Positions 3,339-31,879 of a DNA stretch of 32,435 nucleotides are shown here, piece by piece. The DNA comes from a virus. Taxonomy: Duplodnaviria; Caudoviricetes. The translations under genes and the position numbers were made by a program. The stretch is taken from positions 1 to 32,435 of the IMG/VR virus record IMGVR_UViG_3300036853_000145; one strand, 5' to 3'. The notes below the pieces were generated by a model that saw nothing but the letters and a program-made list of their open reading frames with translations, was not told the DNA's origin and made no database searches. The first letter of the stretch is position 1. Every line of letters begins with the position of its first letter.

Positions 3339-3356
3339 TACCCCTGGGAGATCCCG

Positions 3357-4190: not shown

Positions 4191-4317
4191 TGGTGGCCTC
4201 CAGGTCAAGGGGGAGCTACGTTCCGGCGCATCGTCCCACGCGCTCGGCGCGCGTGGTGATCACGTCGTACCAAGACCCTTGGTAGGGTCCCCCGCAGTAG
4301 TACCCGCACCAGACGAT

Positions 4318-8305: not shown

Positions 8306-11300
8306 TGGCCCGTACGACCTCGATCATTGAGCTGCTGTTCCGGGGGAACAGCACCGACGCGGCGGCGGCGATCGCCCGTCTTCGCCGGCAACTGGAGGCG
8401 CTGAACGAGAACAACAGCCGCGCCGCGCGCTCGGCCCGGCTGTTCGGTACCGACGTCGACGCCACGTCGCGCAAGCTCAACGGTGCGGCCGGCTCGGCCA
8501 TCAAGTTCGTGGGCGCCATGGGCTCGATCGGCGGGGCGCTGCCCGCCATTGCCGGGCTCACGGCCAGCCTGACGACCACGGCCGGCGCCGCCCTGGTGCT
8601 GCCCGGCGTGCTGCTCGGTGCGGCCGGCGCGGTCACCACGCTGAAGCTGGCCACCTCGGGCTTCGGGGACGCGGTCAAGGCGGCCGACCCCAAGGCGTTC
8701 GCTGAGGCGACGAAGGACATGGCCCCGGCGGCCGTCCAGACGGCCAAGGCGTTCCGCGACCTGAAGCCCGCGATCGAGGCGATGAAGAAGGAGATCCAGA
8801 CCAACTTCTTCGCCGGCCTGGCGACCGACGTCCGGCTGCTCGGGAACCAGTACCTGCCGGCCCTGCGCCCACAGTTCGCGGGCATCGCCACCGAGTACAA
8901 CTCGATGGCCCGCGCCGCTGTAGGCGCCCTGCTGGCCCCGCAGGCCGTCCGTGACGTGAACGCGGTGCTGACCGCGCAGCGTGGCGTCCTGAACGACCTG
9001 AAGCCGGCCCTGGGCAACATCCTGACCGGCATCCTGGCCATCGGCCAGCAGGGCGCGGCCGAGTTCCGGGGCATGGGCGCGGCCATCACCGACGTGACGG
9101 CCCGGTTCGCCGCGTGGGCGCGGCGCGCGCAGGAGACCGGCCAGATCACCCAGATCATCCGGGAGGGCAAAGAGGAGCTGGCCAAGTACGGCGAGGTCGG
9201 CAGCAACGTCGGCGGCATCCTCTCAACGGTCTTCAAGGGCCTGTCGATCGACGGCCAGAACTTCGCCGACGGCCTGATCGAGACCACGCAGGCGCTGGAG
9301 GACTTCCTCAACAGTGCCGAGGGCCAGGAAGCCCTCCAGGCGCTCGGCGAGACCCTGCGGGTGACCGCGCAGGTGACCCGCGAGGTGCTGCTGACCGCCC
9401 TGAAGGAGCTGGCGCCGATCATCATCGCCGTGGCCCCGGCGGTCCAGGACTTCGCCCGGGTGCTCGGGGCGGTGCTGGTCGACGCGATCAAGACGGTCGG
9501 GCCGATCCTCCAGGGCTTCGCCACGGCGCTGTCCGCGCTGGCGCCGTCGTTCCAGTTCCTGGTTCCGGCCCTCGCAGGCCTGGTGCTCGGGTTCGGCGCC
9601 CTGCGGGTGATCAACACGGTGGTGGGCTGGGTGACGGCCGGGGCGGCGGCGTTCCGAACCCTGGGCATCGCGCTCGGGCCGGTGGTGCTGGTGCTGGCCA
9701 TCGGCGCGGCCATTGCCGCCCTGAACAACCTGCGCAGCTCGGAAGAGGCGGCGGCCGAGGCGGCGGCCAAGCACCAGAGCCGTATCCAGACGCTGAAGTC
9801 CACGCTGGACCAGTACAACGGGTCGGTCACCGAGTCGACCCGGCTCCAGGTCGCCCAGGAACTCGCCGGCGCCACCCTCGCCGACGGCACCACGAAGATC
9901 ACCGATGCCCTGCGCGCGGCCGGCATCTCGTTCAACGACTACAGCGCGGCGGCCTCGGGCAACGGTGACGCGCTGGAGCGAGTGAATGCCCAGCTCGGCG
10001 AGCAGGCCCGACAGGTCATCGGTGGGTCGCAGGCGTGGCAGGCGCAGTCGGCCACGCTCCAGAAGCACGGGATCTCGCTGGATCTGGTGAGCGCGGCGGC
10101 GCTGGGCAACGTCCAGGCGCAGCAGGAGATCGCGAACAAGCTGCGCGACACCTCGGTGAACATGACGGCGGCGGAGAACCGGGCTAAGGACTTGACCGAC
10201 CAGTTCCGCGAACAGGTCGGTCCGCTCGGGGAGCTGGGCTCGACCCTGGGCGACTACTCGGGCGCGCTCAAGGACGCCCAGGAACAGACCGCCCTGGCCG
10301 GCAAGGCCGGTGCCGACTTCTCCACCATCCTGGAGTCGATCCAGGGCGGCCTGGCCGGACTGAAGGGCACCGGCAACCCGACCGCGCCCCTGGTGACCGG
10401 CTTCCAGGACTTGGCCAAGGCGGCGCTGACGTCGGCCACGGCGGCCGGGCAGGCCGACGTCGCGTACGGCGGCGTGGCGGCCGGCGCGGACACGGCCGCG
10501 CGCAAGGTCCAGGAGTCCCGGGATGCGTTCATCGCCTCGGCCACGGCAGCCGGGGTGACCCAGCAGCGGGCGAACCAGCTGGCCGACTCGATGGGCCTGA
10601 TCCCGGACGCGGTGCGGACCGATTTCATCACCAACGCCGATGCCGTGGGCCAGTCGCTCAACCAGATCAATGAGCAGTTCGACCGGGTGCCGGGCACCAA
10701 GACGGTCACGGTCAACGCGCTGACCGCCGAGGCGATCACCCGGCTGGAAACTCTGGGCTTCAAGATCCGGGAGACCCCCAACGGACAGTTCGAGGTCACG
10801 GCCAACACCAAGGACGCGCTGGGCCAGCTGGACGCGGCCCTGGCCCAGGTCAACGGCTCTACCGGCACCTTCACCCTGGACGCCAACCCGGCCGACGCCG
10901 AGGGGCGGATCAGGGCCACGGTGACCTTGGCCGACGGTTCGGTCGGCACGATGACGATCGACGGCAACGGTCAGCCGGCCGAGGTGGAACTTAACGGGGT
11001 TAAGTACAAGGTGGACGCCACCACCGGGGTCATGACGATCGACGGCAACCCCAAGCCCGGTATCGCGAACCTGAACGGCTTCAAGCTCCAGACCGACCGG
11101 ACCACCGGAACCATGATCGTGGCCGCCAACACCGGGCCCGGTAAGCAGACCGCCGACGCCTTCTACAACAGCCAGAACGGGCGCGTCATCACCATGACGG
11201 TGCGGGTCACCACGACTGGCGAAGTGCTCGGGCGGGGCAACACCGGCCTGGCCGGCGGTGGCCTGATCGGCCATCCCAAGCTCGGCGGGCAGCCGATGTA

Positions 11301-11727
11301 TGCCAGCTCGGGCTTGGTGCTGTCGGGCTACGCACCTGGCCGGGACACCGTCGGCCCGTTGTGGCTCTCGCCCGGTGAAGCGGTCCTGGTGCCCGAGCTG
11401 GTCAAGCAGATCGGTCCGGGCGAGATCCTGCGCGCGAACCGGATGGCCTCGAACGGCCGGCGGCCCACCATCGCTGGGCACTGGCCCGGGTTCGCTGGCG
11501 GCGGCGTGGTGGACAGCGGCCTGGCCAGCGCCCTGTCCAGTTCGATCCGGACCACGGTCGCGGGTCCGGCGGCGACCGGGACCGTGGTGACCGTTCCGGC
11601 GCCCGTCGTGGTCAACCACTTCTACGTGGACGGGCAGGAGTTCCGGGGCATGGTGCGGACCGAGATCGACGCTGACCAGCGCAAGACGGCTCGGCGGGTC
11701 CGGCAGGGCTCGGGGGCGAGCTTCTGA
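8305..11727 (+). CDS. tape measure protein
   Basis: 1140 aa, Ala/Gly-rich helical; C-terminal AGGGLI...GRDTV..WLSPGEAVL motif; follows the tail chaperone. Confidence 0.92.
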   Translation: MARTTSIIELLFRGNSTDAAAAIARLRRQLEALNENNSRAARSARLFGTDVDATSRKLNGAAGSAIKFVGAMGSIGGALPAIAGLTASLTTTAGAALVLPGVLLGAAGAVTTLKLATSGFGDAVKAADPKAFAEATKDMAPAAVQTAKAFRDLKPAIEAMKKEIQTNFFAGLATDVRLLGNQYLPALRPQFAGIATEYNSMARAAVGALLAPQAVRDVNAVLTAQRGVLNDLKPALGNILTGILAIGQQGAAEFRGMGAAITDVTARFAAWARRAQETGQITQIIREGKEELAKYGEVGSNVGGILSTVFKGLSIDGQNFADGLIETTQALEDFLNSAEGQEALQALGETLRVTAQVTREVLLTALKELAPIIIAVAPAVQDFARVLGAVLVDAIKTVGPILQGFATALSALAPSFQFLVPALAGLVLGFGALRVINTVVGWVTAGAAAFRTLGIALGPVVLVLAIGAAIAALNNLRSSEEAAAEAAAKHQSRIQTLKSTLDQYNGSVTESTRLQVAQELAGATLADGTTKITDALRAAGISFNDYSAAASGNGDALERVNAQLGEQARQVIGGSQAWQAQSATLQKHGISLDLVSAAALGNVQAQQEIANKLRDTSVNMTAAENRAKDLTDQFREQVGPLGELGSTLGDYSGALKDAQEQTALAGKAGADFSTILESIQGGLAGLKGTGNPTAPLVTGFQDLAKAALTSATAAGQADVAYGGVAAGADTAARKVQESRDAFIASATAAGVTQQRANQLADSMGLIPDAVRTDFITNADAVGQSLNQINEQFDRVPGTKTVTVNALTAEAITRLETLGFKIRETPNGQFEVTANTKDALGQLDAALAQVNGSTGTFTLDANPADAEGRIRATVTLADGSVGTMTIDGNGQPAEVELNGVKYKVDATTGVMTIDGNPKPGIANLNGFKLQTDRTTGTMIVAANTGPGKQTADAFYNSQNGRVITMTVRVTTTGEVLGRGNTGLAGGGLIGHPKLGGQPMYASSGLVLSGYAPGRDTVGPLWLSPGEAVLVPELVKQIGPGEILRANRMASNGRRPTIAGHWPGFAGGGVVDSGLASALSSSIRTTVAGPAATGTVVTVPAPVVVNHFYVDGQEFRGMVRTEIDADQRKTARRVRQGSGASF

Positions 11728-19853: not shown

Positions 19854-20287
19854 TGTTCCCGACCCCGCTGGAGATCCTGATGGCCTGGACCCTAAATCTC
19901 CGGCGCCGACTGCTGGCGCCGGTGCTCGAAGCGATCGACGAGATGGAGACACGACTCATGACCCGTGCAGATGAGCTGGTGGCCCGGCTGAACGACGCCA
20001 CCAACGAACTGGCCAGCGACCTGCGCGACCTGCGCTCGGCACTGGAGGAGGCCACGGCCGGCTCGGACAGCAAGGTGGCCCAGGCCGTCAACGCGGCCCT
20101 GGACGGTTTCGAGGGCCCGATCTCGGCCCTTGAGGCCATGGGCGCCGACCAGTCCGCGCCGGTGCCGGACGGGCCGGCTGGCCCGGGACCGAGCGATGGC
20201 GGCGACGGCATCCCGGCCGGGCCGACCACCCCGGCCGATGAGCCCGACACCGAGCCCGGCGACGGGCAGCTCCCGAACGACCAGTAG
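19853..20287 (+). CDS. hypothetical coiled-coil protein, last gene of the + operon
   Basis: TGATG coupling; GC3 bias. Confidence 0.7.
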
Positions 20288-20337
20288 GGCAAGCGTCACC
20301 TGGTGGATCATGTACTACCGGCCGTAGTATCGGCGCC

Positions 20338-20414
20338 GTGGTTCTGTCTACTCCCAGGTGATCGAATCCCACAGCGAAGGGCCCCCCGGATTCCGGGGGG
20401 CCCTTCGTGTTGTG
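20338..20414 (+). ncRNA. candidate trans-acting small RNA antisense to the CCTGGGAG ribosome-binding regions
   Basis: -10-like TAGTAT at 20325-20330; seed GTTCTGTCTACTCCCAGGTGATCG at 20341-20364; terminator 20375-20407; no credible ORF. Ends are estimated. Confidence 0.55.
20375..20407. terminator. probable bidirectional terminator between the two genome arms, perfect 15-bp stem
   Basis: CGAAGGGCCCCCCGG-ATT-CCGGGGGGCCCTTCG followed by TGTTGTG. Confidence 0.85.
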
Positions 20415-20420
20415 CGGGGA

Positions 20421-20804
20421 TCAGATCCACTTCTCGTACTCGGCCAGCCGGCGCAGGGCCGCCGCCCGCCGGGCCTCCGTCTCGCCGGCCAGCTTGGCGT
20501 CCAGCGCCTTGACCCAGTCCGGCAGTTCGGGCGCCCGCTGGAGACCGGTCTCCAGGTCGCGGACCCGGGCGAACGCGGCATCGGCCTGGCTACCCAGCTC
20601 GCTGAGCTGGACTTCCAGGTCGGACACCTCGCCCTCGGCCTCTTCGGCACGCTCGACCAGCCGCAGCTCCCGGTCGCGGTGCAACTCGCGCTCGGCAGTC
20701 AGCTCGGCTTCCAGCTGGTCCAGCGCCTCGCCGAAGCGCTGCTGTGCGGCGCGGGCCTCGACCAGGGCTTGGCCCAAGGCATCGGTGAAGTGGTACGTAG
20801 CCAT
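20421..20804 (-). CDS. hypothetical coiled-coil protein
   Basis: SD/motif variant CCTGAGGAG; ends at the terminator. Confidence 0.75.
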   Translation of the reverse strand: MATYHFTDALGQALVEARAAQQRFGEALDQLEAELTAERELHRDRELRLVERAEEAEGEVSDLEVQLSELGSQADAAFARVRDLETGLQRAPELPDWVKALDAKLAGETEARRAAALRRLAEYEKWI

Positions 20805-20857
20805 GTTCGTCTCCTCAGGTGAAGGGGCCGGGGCCCGATCGGGCCCCGGCCGGTCGT

Positions 20858-21121
20858 TCAGCGCTCCAGCAGCTCCCAGAAGCGGCGCTCGTCATCGTCC
20901 TGGCAGTAGACGGCCTCCTCGGCCCTCTCTGCCGCAGCGGCGGCCTCAGCGATCGCCAGAGCCTGCGCGGGGTTCGGCTGGTCCATCTGTCCTCCCAGGG
21001 ACGGGGCCCAGGCCACGCGGCTGGTGTCCAGCTGCGCGCCCGGCCAGAAGTGGAAGCCCCTGATCGGCGCCGGGGAGACCAGCAGGACCACCAGCGCCAG
21101 GACCAGGAGCAACTTCGTCAT
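20858..21121 (-). CDS. hypothetical protein with hydrophobic N-terminus; internal second start at 20986
   Basis: Leaderless ATG 6 nt after the -10 of P2; in-frame ATG 20986 has CCTGGGAGG upstream. Confidence 0.6.
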   Translation of the reverse strand: MTKLLLVLALVVLLVSPAPIRGFHFWPGAQLDTSRVAWAPSLGGQMDQPNPAQALAIAEAAAAAERAEEAVYCQDDDERRFWELLER

Positions 21122-21165
21122 GGGAGAAGACTAACCCATGGGAGAGAGCCCGCGCAACCCATGGG
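21122..21165 (-). promoter_or_regulatory. paired-palindrome promoter P2 (identical to P1)
   Basis: CCCATGGG at 21158-21165 and 21135-21142; -35 TTGCGC; -10 TAGTCT. Confidence 0.8.
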
Positions 21166-22698
21166 TCACTCGTCCTCGAACGGCTCCAGGAGATGCCGCA
21201 CCAGGTGCGCGTAGGCATCGGGCAGATCGTCGTGGACCAGCGCCAGAGAGCCCCACATCTGGAGGTCGGTCTCGGTCTCGGGCAGGCGTTGGGAGTGCCA
21301 GACCTGCTCCTCTTCGGCGAAGTACAGCGCGCGGGCGATCCGATCCATCTTCGACATACGCCCGGCCGCGTGCACCTCCAGCTCGACGCCCGGCGGCAAG
21401 ATCGGCTCGATGACCCCGATCCACAGCGCCGAGCCCTGGTTCCCCTCCACGCGGACCTTGCGGATCGCCGGGTTCGCCGCCAGGTGCCGCTTCACCCGCT
21501 CGGCCAGCTGGCCCGGCGTGGTCCGGAACTTCGAGCCGTGCAGGATCACCGCGCGGGCCTTGGGGATGGCGAGACTGGCCGGCACCAGGCCGCCGACCAC
21601 CAGCGCCGTGTAGTCCGAGGTCGGGTCCGCCGTCGGGGCCGGGTCAATTTGCATGACCAGCGGCTTGCCGTCCAGCCATTCCAGCCCGCCGTAGCGGAAC
21701 GTCTCGGGCTTCCAGTTGTGCCCGCCCGGCAGCGGCGGCCAGCCGGCGAAGTTCAGGAGGTAGTTCAGCGTGTGCTCGATGCGCTCCAGGTAGCCCAGCG
21801 CGTAGCGCTGGGGCCAGAAGCTGCGCCGCACACCCGTGGCCGGGTCTTCCTGGATCGCCGGCACGTAGTGCACGGTGAAGTGCTCGTCATCGATCCACTG
21901 TTCCTGGCGGCCCTCCCGGCGGGCCTTGCGCGCCACCGCGTGCATGATCGAGTCGTACATGGTCACGGTGCCCATCAGCACCACGGCGGCCTGCTCGTTC
22001 ATCGGCAACACGGTGTTAAGCAGGGTCTCCAGGCGCTTCTTGCGCGCGGCCACGGAGTAGTTCGAGGCATCGGGCTCGATGTCGTCGCACACCAGCCCGT
22101 CGGGCCGCTTGCCGCCGATGTTGAGCCCGAGCATCCGGGTATTCATCCCGCGCACGGCGAAGATCGCCCCACCGCGCGCGGTGTAGGTGTCCTGCGAGTC
22201 CCGGGCCCCGCGCGTGCCGATGCGCGGCGGGGCCATGTCCGGGAAGTCGCGCAGCAGGACGCCGTTCGAACCAACCTCGTTCCGGAACGTGGCCATGGCC
22301 AGCCGGGCCTGATCGCTGGAGTCCGAGAGCCAGCCGAAGAACCGGCGGTGCCCGTGGCACAGCGCCCACAGCACCAGGATCACGGTCCACGTCGTCTTGG
22401 CCGCACCGCGCGGGGCCACCCAGGCGTCCCGGCACGCGCCCGGCCGGGACCACTTCGCCGCTGCCTTGGCCATGGCGAAGTGGTGCTCGGCGAGGCTGGA
22501 CACGTTGCCCGTCTCCGGGCTGCGGAGCAGGTGCGGCAGGTACACCAGGGCGAAGCGCACCGGCGACCACCGGGTGACGTCCCGACGGAACTGGCCGTTC
22601 ACCTCGATGGCCGGTGTCCACTCGCCCTGGTACCGCTCGGTCACGGTCCAGGGCTCGAACAGTGCGTCTCGGTCGACGGTCGCCGGCAGCGCGATCAC
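21166..22698 (-). CDS. terL: terminase large subunit
   Basis: Walker A APRGAAKTT, Walker B LVCDDIE, motif LMGT, nuclease acidic residues MQIDPA...SDYTA and HDDLPDA. Confidence 0.9.
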   Translation of the reverse strand: MIALPATVDRDALFEPWTVTERYQGEWTPAIEVNGQFRRDVTRWSPVRFALVYLPHLLRSPETGNVSSLAEHHFAMAKAAAKWSRPGACRDAWVAPRGAAKTTWTVILVLWALCHGHRRFFGWLSDSSDQARLAMATFRNEVGSNGVLLRDFPDMAPPRIGTRGARDSQDTYTARGGAIFAVRGMNTRMLGLNIGGKRPDGLVCDDIEPDASNYSVAARKKRLETLLNTVLPMNEQAAVVLMGTVTMYDSIMHAVARKARREGRQEQWIDDEHFTVHYVPAIQEDPATGVRRSFWPQRYALGYLERIEHTLNYLLNFAGWPPLPGGHNWKPETFRYGGLEWLDGKPLVMQIDPAPTADPTSDYTALVVGGLVPASLAIPKARAVILHGSKFRTTPGQLAERVKRHLAANPAIRKVRVEGNQGSALWIGVIEPILPPGVELEVHAAGRMSKMDRIARALYFAEEEQVWHSQRLPETETDLQMWGSLALVHDDLPDAYAHLVRHLLEPFEDE

Positions 22699-23978: not shown

Positions 23979-24436
23979 GATCCACTCCCGGTGTCGTCGT
24001 CGATCGCCGCACGATCGCGCGCGGCGATCGCATGCGCCTCGCGGATGGCCCGGATCATCTCGGGGTCCGGGCGCGGCTCGTCGGTGTGCAGCGTGACCGT
24101 GGTCGGCGCGTACCCACCGTGGATCTTCAGAATCTCGCGGACCACGGTCACCACGACCGGGGCCACCTTCTCGAACTCGGCGCCCTTCTCGTCCAGGCGC
24201 TGGAGCCCGCGCGCCTTCAGTTCTTCGAGCAGGCCGGTCGCGTCGGCCACGATCTCGGCCCGGTTGTAGGCCGGCACCCACTGCTCGGCGTGCTCGAAGA
24301 TCCGCACGTAGCTGCGCGCGGTCTCCGTGGAGACCCCGAGCGCGCGGGCGATGTCGGCCAGGTAGGCACCGTCACGGCGCATCAGGCCGGCGCGGGCGAC
24401 CTTGCGCGGGTCGGGCGCCGGACGTCCCCCGGGCAT
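23975..24436 (-). CDS. HTH protein, probable terminase small subunit
   Basis: HTH (GAYLADIARALGVSTETARSYV), helical core, then KIHGGYAP resembling the LLG.DAP ending of TerS-like proteins; upstream of terL. Confidence 0.6.
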   Translation of the reverse strand: MPGGRPAPDPRKVARAGLMRRDGAYLADIARALGVSTETARSYVRIFEHAEQWVPAYNRAEIVADATGLLEELKARGLQRLDEKGAEFEKVAPVVVTVVREILKIHGGYAPTTVTLHTDEPRPDPEMIRAIREAHAIAARDRAAIDDDTGSGS

Positions 24437-24642: not shown

Positions 24643-24706
24643 TTCGTCCACTCCCAGGGACACGGACGGCCGGACCCGGTAGGGGCCCGGCCGTCACGGA
24701 TCGGTA

Positions 24707-25377: not shown

Positions 25378-25413
25378 TGCTCTGTCCTCCCAGGACTTCG
25401 GTACTGCTCGGTC

Positions 25414-26362: not shown

Positions 26363-26432
26363 CGTTGCTCCCAGGTGATGGGGCCGATCGGCCCCGAAGG
26401 CCGGGGGGCCCGGTCGGGCCCCCCGGAGTCTG

Positions 26433-27911: not shown

Positions 27912-27928
27912 GGTTCCCTCCCAGGGGA

Positions 27929-29313: not shown

Positions 29314-29329
29314 GGGTCTGTCCTCTCTG

Positions 29330-29500
29330 TGTTCCCAGGTGATCGTTTGGGCACTACGGCCGGACGGCGAATACCGCGCCCGGCCGGGTGGGAGGTCGGC
29401 CGCCGCTCCCCAGCGGCGGCCGACCTCCGGGTGGCGGACCTCCCCCGAGGTTCCGCCGGGCGCGCTCCCGGACTGTCGAATCCGGCGCTGCCCTACGTCT
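29330..29500 (-). ncRNA. highly structured RNA or long 5-prime leader downstream of P5
   Basis: Perfect 17-bp stem 29391-29407/29412-29428; second hairpin 29433-29457; enclosing helix 29375-29383/29456-29464; further outer pairings. Ends are estimated. Confidence 0.55.
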
Positions 29501-30515: not shown

Positions 30516-30543
30516 GTTCTGATGTCTCCCAGGTGGTAGAACT

Positions 30544-30738: not shown

Positions 30739-30813
30739 CGGTTTCTCCCAGGTCCCCGAGCTTCGGTCGAGCACCCGGCCGCCGGGCTCGGGGTCACCGG
30801 CGGCCGGGGGGTC

Positions 30814-31154: not shown

Positions 31155-31200
31155 GTTCTGCCTCCCAGGCTTCCGACCCTCCTGCGGGGCCGATGGGAGA

Positions 31201-31782: not shown

Positions 31783-31879
31783 GGTCGCTCCCAGGGATCG
31801 GCGTCGGGCCCGACCGTACCGGGCCCGGGAACGGGAACAGCCCCGGCCGGTGGGCCCGGCCGGGGCTGCTGTGGGGGCT

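Follow-up and report, generated by a model that had tools for sequence, protein, structure and literature searches.

A candidate trans-acting small RNA behind the late operon may pair with a ribosome-binding-site tag on non-virion genes of a putative actinophage

We describe a short sequence tag that coincides with the Shine-Dalgarno (SD) site of ten non-virion genes in a phage record, together with one further copy, reading antisense to the tag, that sits between the end of the late operon and a strong hairpin. In our judgement (probability about 0.65) the unit around this lone copy would specify a trans-acting anti-RBS RNA of ~75 nt, probably made late, whose short form would block ribosome loading on the tagged mRNAs. 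The window, by which we mean the entire stretch of DNA analysed, is the whole 32.4-kb virus record (GC 71%; ~44% complete according to CheckV), in which + strand head and tail genes extend to 20287 and meet a leftward arm that consists mostly of small genes of no assigned function and also encodes an endonuclease VII and a terminase-like protein. An actinobacterial host is likely, the best cultured matches being distant phages of Microbacterium, Streptomyces and Mycobacterium; no close cultured relative was found by DNA match among the phage genomes searched, the terminase-like protein reached ~36% at best, and the 20338-20414 unit returned hairpin fragments only. A scan of 51 window proteins revealed no repressor, and tyrosine or serine integrases were absent from all four records searched (two of them complete). 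What appears to be new is an anti-RBS trans-acting RNA joined to tags that resemble the SAS sites of actinophages, with one independent case of tag/seed covariation; the feature itself is real and our interpretation of it probable.

The core octamer CTCCCAGG occurs 11 times in the window against 2.31 copies expected, a count reached by none of 100 shuffles. On the mRNA strand it reads CCTGGGAG, the top start motif in a blind scan for words ahead of window gene starts, and 10 copies sit 5-10 nt ahead of start codons, nine on minus-strand genes and one on the plus-strand accessory gene 3357 (Table 1). All ten coincide with the SD, and the seed of the candidate RNA covers GGAG itself in every one of them. 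The tag is found at 10 of 32 non-virion starts and at none of the 24 starts in the virion arm (Fisher p 0.003, with hand-curated starts and a contig ~44% complete; starts in the relative G003, see below, came from a crude script). Near matches before genes 29313, 20804, 23978 and 25152 raise the ten exact cases to about 14. Several seed/tag matches are bulged or split, and these count towards RNA pairing because RNA duplexes allow them. In the close relative G001, which is 85% identical overall to the window, changes at the 30515, 20804 and 23978 sites preserve pairing via G·U or a shifted bulge. An earlier note on this DNA had proposed an sRNA complementary to about 12 non-virion genes. The tagged set it described is real, and all strings it quoted are found where it placed them, but the exact count is 10 (~14 with near matches), and its list of targets, correct in its positions, omitted the exact tag of gene 3357 and the near match of gene 23978.

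Table 1. Features of the window and their state in the close relative G001
Feature	Position	Strand	Remarks
Last late (tail) operon gene, no function assigned	19958..20287	+	codon-position identity with G001 fits + frame
Upstream tag-like stretch TCACCTGGTGGA	20296..20307	+	predicted to pair with seed in read-through late transcript; identical in G001
Predicted -10 box TAGTAT	20325..20330	+	one of 8 + strand TANNNT; one of 3 kept at orthologous place in G001 (TAGGAT)
Candidate small RNA, ~75 nt (seed region + terminator)	20338..20414	+	fold z -5.6, owed to terminal hairpin
Seed region	20341..20364	+	core CTCCCAGG at 20351-20358 antisense to tag
Strong hairpin between convergent operons, predicted bidirectional terminator	20370..20414	.	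without T-run of 5
Near-match before gene 20804	20805..20822	-	tag plus one inserted base
Tag before gene 20986	20992..20999	-	kept in G001
Near-match before gene 23978	23980..23993	-	14 bp, one bulge; window and G001 each miss a different single tag base
Tag before gene 24642	24651..24658	-	longest helix, 14 contiguous bp with G·U; kept in G001
Tag before gene 25377	25387..25394	-	kept in G001
Tag before gene 26362	26368..26375	-	12-nt exact complement; kept in G001
Tag before gene 27911	27918..27925	-	lost in G001
Split near-match, leader of gene 29313	29318..29345	-	13 nt exact plus second stretch over SD; identical in G001
Tag before gene 30515	30526..30533	-	exact copy; G001 compared
Tag before gene 30738 (Zn-finger-like)	30745..30752	-	exact copy; G001 compared
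Tag before gene 31154	31162..31169	-	exact copy; G001 compared
Tag before gene 31782	31788..31795	-	exact copy; G001 compared
Tag before accessory gene 3357, within head operon	3343..3350	+	core only, weak duplex; other gene here in G001

The eleventh copy is the only one away from a gene start and lies, as the earlier note had seen, between the TAGTAT box and the hairpin. The last late stop and this hairpin are 82 nt apart, and an exact core would fall into such a gap with a probability of 0.003. The copy shares its DNA orientation with the nine minus-strand tags and is antisense only relative to a + transcript, for which the predicted start falls at ~20336-20338; a TTG-type -35 was looked for upstream of the box and none was found. 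TANNNT words are rare on the window + strand, and the three kept in G001 are those of an early promoter, the capsid promoter and the 20325 box. At the hairpin G001 shows a compensatory change from G-C to U-A and a new loop, and this conservation of box and hairpin supports, at the level of sequence, the reading of the stretch as an RNA unit. Positions 20329-20379 are identical in G001; seed identity as such is not special in a pair of genomes with 59 perfect runs of 48 nt or more. The label 'terminator' is drawn from the strength and position of the hairpin since it has no T-run and a consensus terminator scan found nothing there. A search of the whole window against Rfam gave no family at gathering score and three sub-threshold matches, none of them c4 or 6C (a sub-threshold match at 20375-20428 is the hairpin scored on ftsZ-DE, 30.6 of 72.2 bits), and a tRNA scan of the 20338-20414 unit found no tRNA. 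The TACTAC/GTAGTA palindrome (20313-20329), which the earlier note had pointed out, is broken in G001 (GTAGGA) while TANNNT is kept, and we have dropped it, also as an operator.

The mechanism that we propose would begin with an RNA that starts behind the TAGTAT box and ends at the hairpin. Its seed CUCCCAGG would pair over the tag CCUGGGAG on the SD site, GGAG included, of the ten non-virion mRNAs; pairing would block ribosome loading, and translation of the tagged set would thus fall together, probably late in infection. Opening the core is predicted to cost 1.9 kcal/mol in a short RNA from ~20337 and 8-13 kcal/mol in read-through forms of both the window and G001, where the core pairs with 20296-20307. 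In read-through late mRNA the seed would thus be out of reach, which leaves the short form as the presumed active species. Late timing is suggested by the place at the end of the tail operon, by a promoter without the early CCCATGGG/TTG layout and by the absence of integrase from complete relatives.

That the unit is likely a small RNA follows for us from a related phage, which has a different tag and, in the same spot, its own mirror copy. G003, reached through a conserved virion protein, is a complete 73.8-kb phage with terminal repeats and is syntenic with the window in that tail genes, a collagen-like gene and a hairpin are followed on the opposite strand by a homologue of gene 20804 and a terminase-like gene. 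In a blind scan its top start motif is GAACGGAG, which is unlike the window tag; 11 of the 12 copies sit 7-10 nt ahead of starts, outside the structural operon, and all 11 coincide with the SD. The stop of the collagen gene overlaps TAACCT, and 7 nt further on comes GTCGGTTTCCGTTCGAC, then a 13-bp hairpin. Within this gap, the 12 nt of GGTTTCCGTTCG can pair with the tag CGAACGGAGACC throughout, the last G of the SD forming the single U·G wobble. The gap copy lacks the SD G which all 11 tags carry. A G·U-permissive scan for the complement found seven places, namely five tags, the gap and one leader. By composition the gap complement has a chance of 1e-5 (as a 12-mer) or 2e-3 (as an 8-mer), with the tag length picked after the fact. 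When RNAs were swapped between the two phages, window tags gave a mean duplex energy of -29.8 kcal/mol with the window RNA versus -18.6 with that of G003, and G003 tags gave -27.5 with their own RNA versus -20.3 with that of the window. In sets of 800 each, no full shuffle of the G003 RNA paired as well as the RNA itself, whereas three flank shuffles and 14 random 32-mers did; raw energy ranks the 13 tagged genes of G003 from 3 to 64 among 121, and read-through occlusion is weak in this phage (5.6 vs 3.7-5.5 kcal/mol). The two units share position without clear sequence likeness, their homology being read from synteny only. Covariation of seed and motif in related phages, which the earlier note had suggested looking for, is thus present in one independent case, with another tag and its own complement in the same gap.

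A gene at 38332-40550 of G003 (L257:332-2550, - strand) belongs to PHROG 850 ('RNA-binding protein') and is one that we take to be TROVE/Ro60-like. Upstream of it lies a YrlA-like RNA (39.5 bits, under the 69-bit cut-off; E 9e-7), and its leader contains, ~30 nt ahead of the SD, a stretch perfectly complementary to the G003 seed; on the + strand this stretch is predicted to fold with the seed in a loop.

Seven relatives were inspected at the late-operon end (G001, G002, G003, G006, L183, L090 and L091, with G004, L176, L179, L180 and L184 outside the count), and two of the seven have a matched tag/complement unit. In the complete G002 (76.7 kb) tags are present and a lone antisense copy was not found; its repeated leader words are CCACAGGAGG (four copies) and CTCAACAGAG (six copies), and it has many long palindromic promoter elements. 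L183 is suggestive, with one matching start only, while in L090, L091 and G006 the convergent operons leave no such gap and the early arms are mostly missing. In L090 a seed-like 13-mer (two changes; an 11-of-13 match) lies between a TANNNT and a hairpin after the terminase-like gene, the only such match outside G001 in 254 loci scanned (3.2 Mb, redundant). L090:3524-3618 (+) and L091:3368-3492 (+) each show a TAG-overlapping TANNNT past the terminase-like stop, 60-90 nt with small hairpins and a terminator-like hairpin; going by sequence, these post-terminase units may possibly be moved or separate small RNA genes. Matches to the 16-nt window seed in IMG/VR were, in seven of eight cases, unrelated chance matches and were discarded, as was the second match of the G003 seed.

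Complementarity in the flanks of the core is weak. The earlier note had taken the context of the 20351 copy for a 'master sequence' from which different targets match different flanks. Flank matches do exist, but they are modestly above chance and this copy is not the best hub. All flank tests together span p 0.008-0.5. With the core fixed and 1500 trials of each kind, 60 flank shuffles and 761 random genomic flanks reached the raw duplex energy seen in the window, and 70 and 655, respectively, that seen in G001; the raw-energy test is dominated by GC content and is not significant against genomic flanks. An anchored gapped alignment, stricter than raw energy and designed after the raw-energy result was known, found 8-29 of 1000 as good in the window (p 0.008-0.03) and 31-226 of 1000 in G001 (0.03-0.23). 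Better hubs than the 20351 copy were 5 of 10 tag copies in the window by raw energy and 2 of 10 by anchored alignment; in G001, 4 of 9 tag copies did better than its lone copy by anchored alignment. Non-virion genes that lack the core did not outperform virion genes in a blind pairing test (p 0.46; 24 of 150 shuffles). The expectation in the earlier note that genes with the motif should rank top as pairing targets holds in so far as non-virion starts take all of the first 13 places when 56 starts are ranked by pairing, among them four without an exact core (29313, 23978, 25152, 20804), but tagged gene 3357 ranks low and the ranking is partly circular.

Three other explanations of the tag and its lone copy have to be weighed. 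Stoperator-like sites are bound by a phage repressor on DNA and block elongation. The tag may likewise be an asymmetric DNA site for a phage protein and 20351 a further site, past the terminator or at the + promoter, which would agree with the DNA orientation that the lone copy has in common with the nine minus-strand tags. Covariation in G003 fits such a site, too, because protein sites would change together between phages, and the two non-start copies in G003, which both read GAACGGAAACC on the minus strand, would suit a consensus in which either A or G is allowed. What a DNA site leaves unexplained is that all 21 tags (10 in the window, 11 in G003) lie on the SD, 5-10 nt from the start. Given also that near matches are bulged or split, that seven promoters of the phage are already furnished with a palindromic CCCATGGG element and that the 20351 copy lies inside a box-to-hairpin unit, we regard this explanation, the strongest of the three, as unlikely. 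A sense-acting tag, i.e. a private ribosome-binding or RNA-protein site in keeping with the usual reading of SAS, would make the lone copy the RBS of a lost minus-strand gene or a chance occurrence. The earlier note had itself named an RBS of a minus-strand gene as what would speak against its sRNA, and we reject that option for the copy as it stands: no start codon is in reach (39 nt to the nearest), the window version of the shadow ORF contains a stop and there is no promoter room behind the terminator. Two phages with different tags, each with a matching copy in the same gap, and the G003 copy without the SD G present in all 11 tags likewise argue against a sense-acting site, so that despite the weak flank tests, the tags of G002 without a detected antisense copy and a Cluster K phage (MacnCheese) that keeps SAS without an antisense loop, we hold it to be quite improbable.

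Pairing between RNA and tags might also have an outcome other than late repression, for instance if the RNA were a 3' tail of late mRNA or a piece processed from it, if it stabilised or activated some targets, or if it acted early or in a carrier state. With the unit placed after the last late stop and ahead of the terminator, read-through RNA must contain it. Processing might occur at the long hairpin of such RNA, and the perfect site in the leader of the G003 TROVE/Ro60-like gene, ~30 nt upstream, is off the SD. Lambda PreS, too, both represses and activates, according to bioRxiv 2024.10.31.621285. Against this stand the seed that covers GGAG in all exact tags and its predicted burial in read-through RNA of both the window and G001, and of the three alternatives we give this one the smallest chance. 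The trans-acting sRNA proposed earlier is, to our minds, the best reading, backed by the G003 covariation, the rare and conserved TANNNT and the compensated hairpin, but a unique 'master' sequence and a role for the palindrome find no support.

Our anti-RBS reading bears on the SAS sites of actinophages. For the SAS of Cluster K, Pope 2011 (PMC3203893) reports one site of opposite orientation in four phages and allows for either an RNA or a protein as partner; stoperators are described there as DNA sites. SAS also occur in Microbacterium Cluster EF (PMC7302621), and their role is still called ill-defined in papers from 2024 and 2025 (PMC11373665, PMC12699233). Like SAS, the window tag is an asymmetric SD-containing repeat just before non-structural starts (5-10 nt, in 10 exact copies, where SAS number about 10-19) with one copy off gene starts, and the CCCATGGG pairs of the window phage may correspond to the separate inverted-repeat promoters (ESAS) of SAS phages. 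Unlike the 13-nt SAS, the window tag has 8 nt and another sequence: the top start motif is CCTGGGAG rather than the 13-bp consensus GGGATAGGAGCCC (Cluster K) or GGGAAAGGACCCC (Cluster EF). In Adephagia (20,000 to end, 39.6 kb) we count 16 SAS in forward orientation and a single reverse one, whose sequence occupies the loop of a long hairpin in the gap between genes 92 and 93; late transcription begins in this gap according to RNA-seq (PMC11373665). In the window, by contrast, the odd copy belongs to a box-to-terminator unit located at the late operon's 3' end. Enkosi keeps the anti-SAS loop on a changed stem; the loop is degraded in Amohnition and PhelpsODU and lost in MacnCheese (18 SAS), with the same SAS kept in all three, and LeMond, too, lacks it. 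Hence an RNA reading cannot be the whole story of SAS. Tag/copy covariation as between the window phage and G003 was not seen across the four Cluster K phages compared. All seven Cluster K phages aligned share TAGACT, a candidate late promoter, ~95 nt ahead of the anti-SAS hairpin (L168:38575-38720, i.e. Adephagia 58,575-58,720).

Among known RNAs, c4 antisense RNA of P1/P7 targets ant mRNA for immunity in temperate phages and, going by the review PMC12197685, resembles our candidate as a phage RNA that pairs in trans near the RBS of the phage's own mRNA and differs in specificity among related phages. In contrast to c4, the window phage has ~10-14 dispersed genes that share one tag, no c4 family match, and complete relatives without integrase. 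The actinobacterial 6C/B11 RNAs (bioRxiv 2022.10.27.514065) are host-encoded anti-RBS sRNAs whose C-rich loops read G-runs; multi-target repression by RBS pairing in hosts without identified Hfq or ProQ, as reported for mycobacteria, is a likeness, whereas the window seed is a phage-private octamer without Rfam match. Lambda PreS/LPR1 (bioRxiv 2024.10.31.621285) is a phage sRNA with targets that share a motif complementary to its seed; it is Hfq-bound and acts mainly on host genes, while the predicted targets here are the phage's own. c4 RNA and PreS come closest among phage RNAs, yet neither acts on a group of own phage genes marked by a common tag; by sequence, the window element belongs to none of the SAS, c4, 6C/B11 and PreS families. 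The literature searched (supplements and most subscription papers were outside its scope) gave no description of a phage RNA of such design. As a broader proposal, tentative and in our eyes slightly short of even odds, lytic actinophages may shut early protein synthesis with one late sRNA and a private RBS tag on 10-14 of their own genes, tag and RNA being re-coded together between lineages and an upstream anti-seed silencing read-through, which would explain at least some SAS tags. If true, this would give a concrete mechanism to SAS tags, which have been without assigned function since 2011, and would amount to an RNA-only regulon of the phage's own genes, an early-to-late translational switch that needs no protein and a compact multi-gene repression part for actinobacteria. 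Given its reverse SAS in a hairpin loop, Adephagia on M. smegmatis is a cultured phage where the RNA idea can be tested directly.

Apart from the candidate RNA, the window shows seven early-type promoters with CCCATGGG directly before TANNNT, at 2957 (+) and at 21142, 25900, 27092, 29520, 31215 and 32236 (all -); six have a second upstream CCCATGGG copy and five of the seven a TTG -35. These are likely, by their layout, to be operator-promoters of an ESAS-like kind, unrelated in sequence to ESAS and not directly joined to most tags. The early-type promoters of L090 and L091 have the variant CCCCGGGG in the same layout. A candidate capsid promoter, GTGATCACG-N18-TANNNT, lies at 4258-4288 (+), with a spacer that in G001 is unrelated in sequence and kept in length and at both ends. 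GGATCA[C/T]G, 12 nt ahead of the box of the candidate RNA, resembles its upstream element. The terminase-like gene of the leftward arm (PHROG 38; 21166-22698, -) has a G003 counterpart at 35414-37063, and next to the G003 portal, at 9983-11722, lies another terminase (PHROG 9). The early-arm gene may therefore not be the packaging motor, and we dropped the idea that a late need for the terminase-like genes is what keeps them untagged. At the left edge of the window, an ADP-ribosyltransferase domain (PHROG 3895; 79-744, +), probably the last part of a longer head protein whose remainder is lost beyond the contig edge, is found ahead of the head protease, as is an endolysin (1148-1975, +). Between 2957 and 4190 the second + gene is not the same in G001, and a run of 15 C lies ahead of it.
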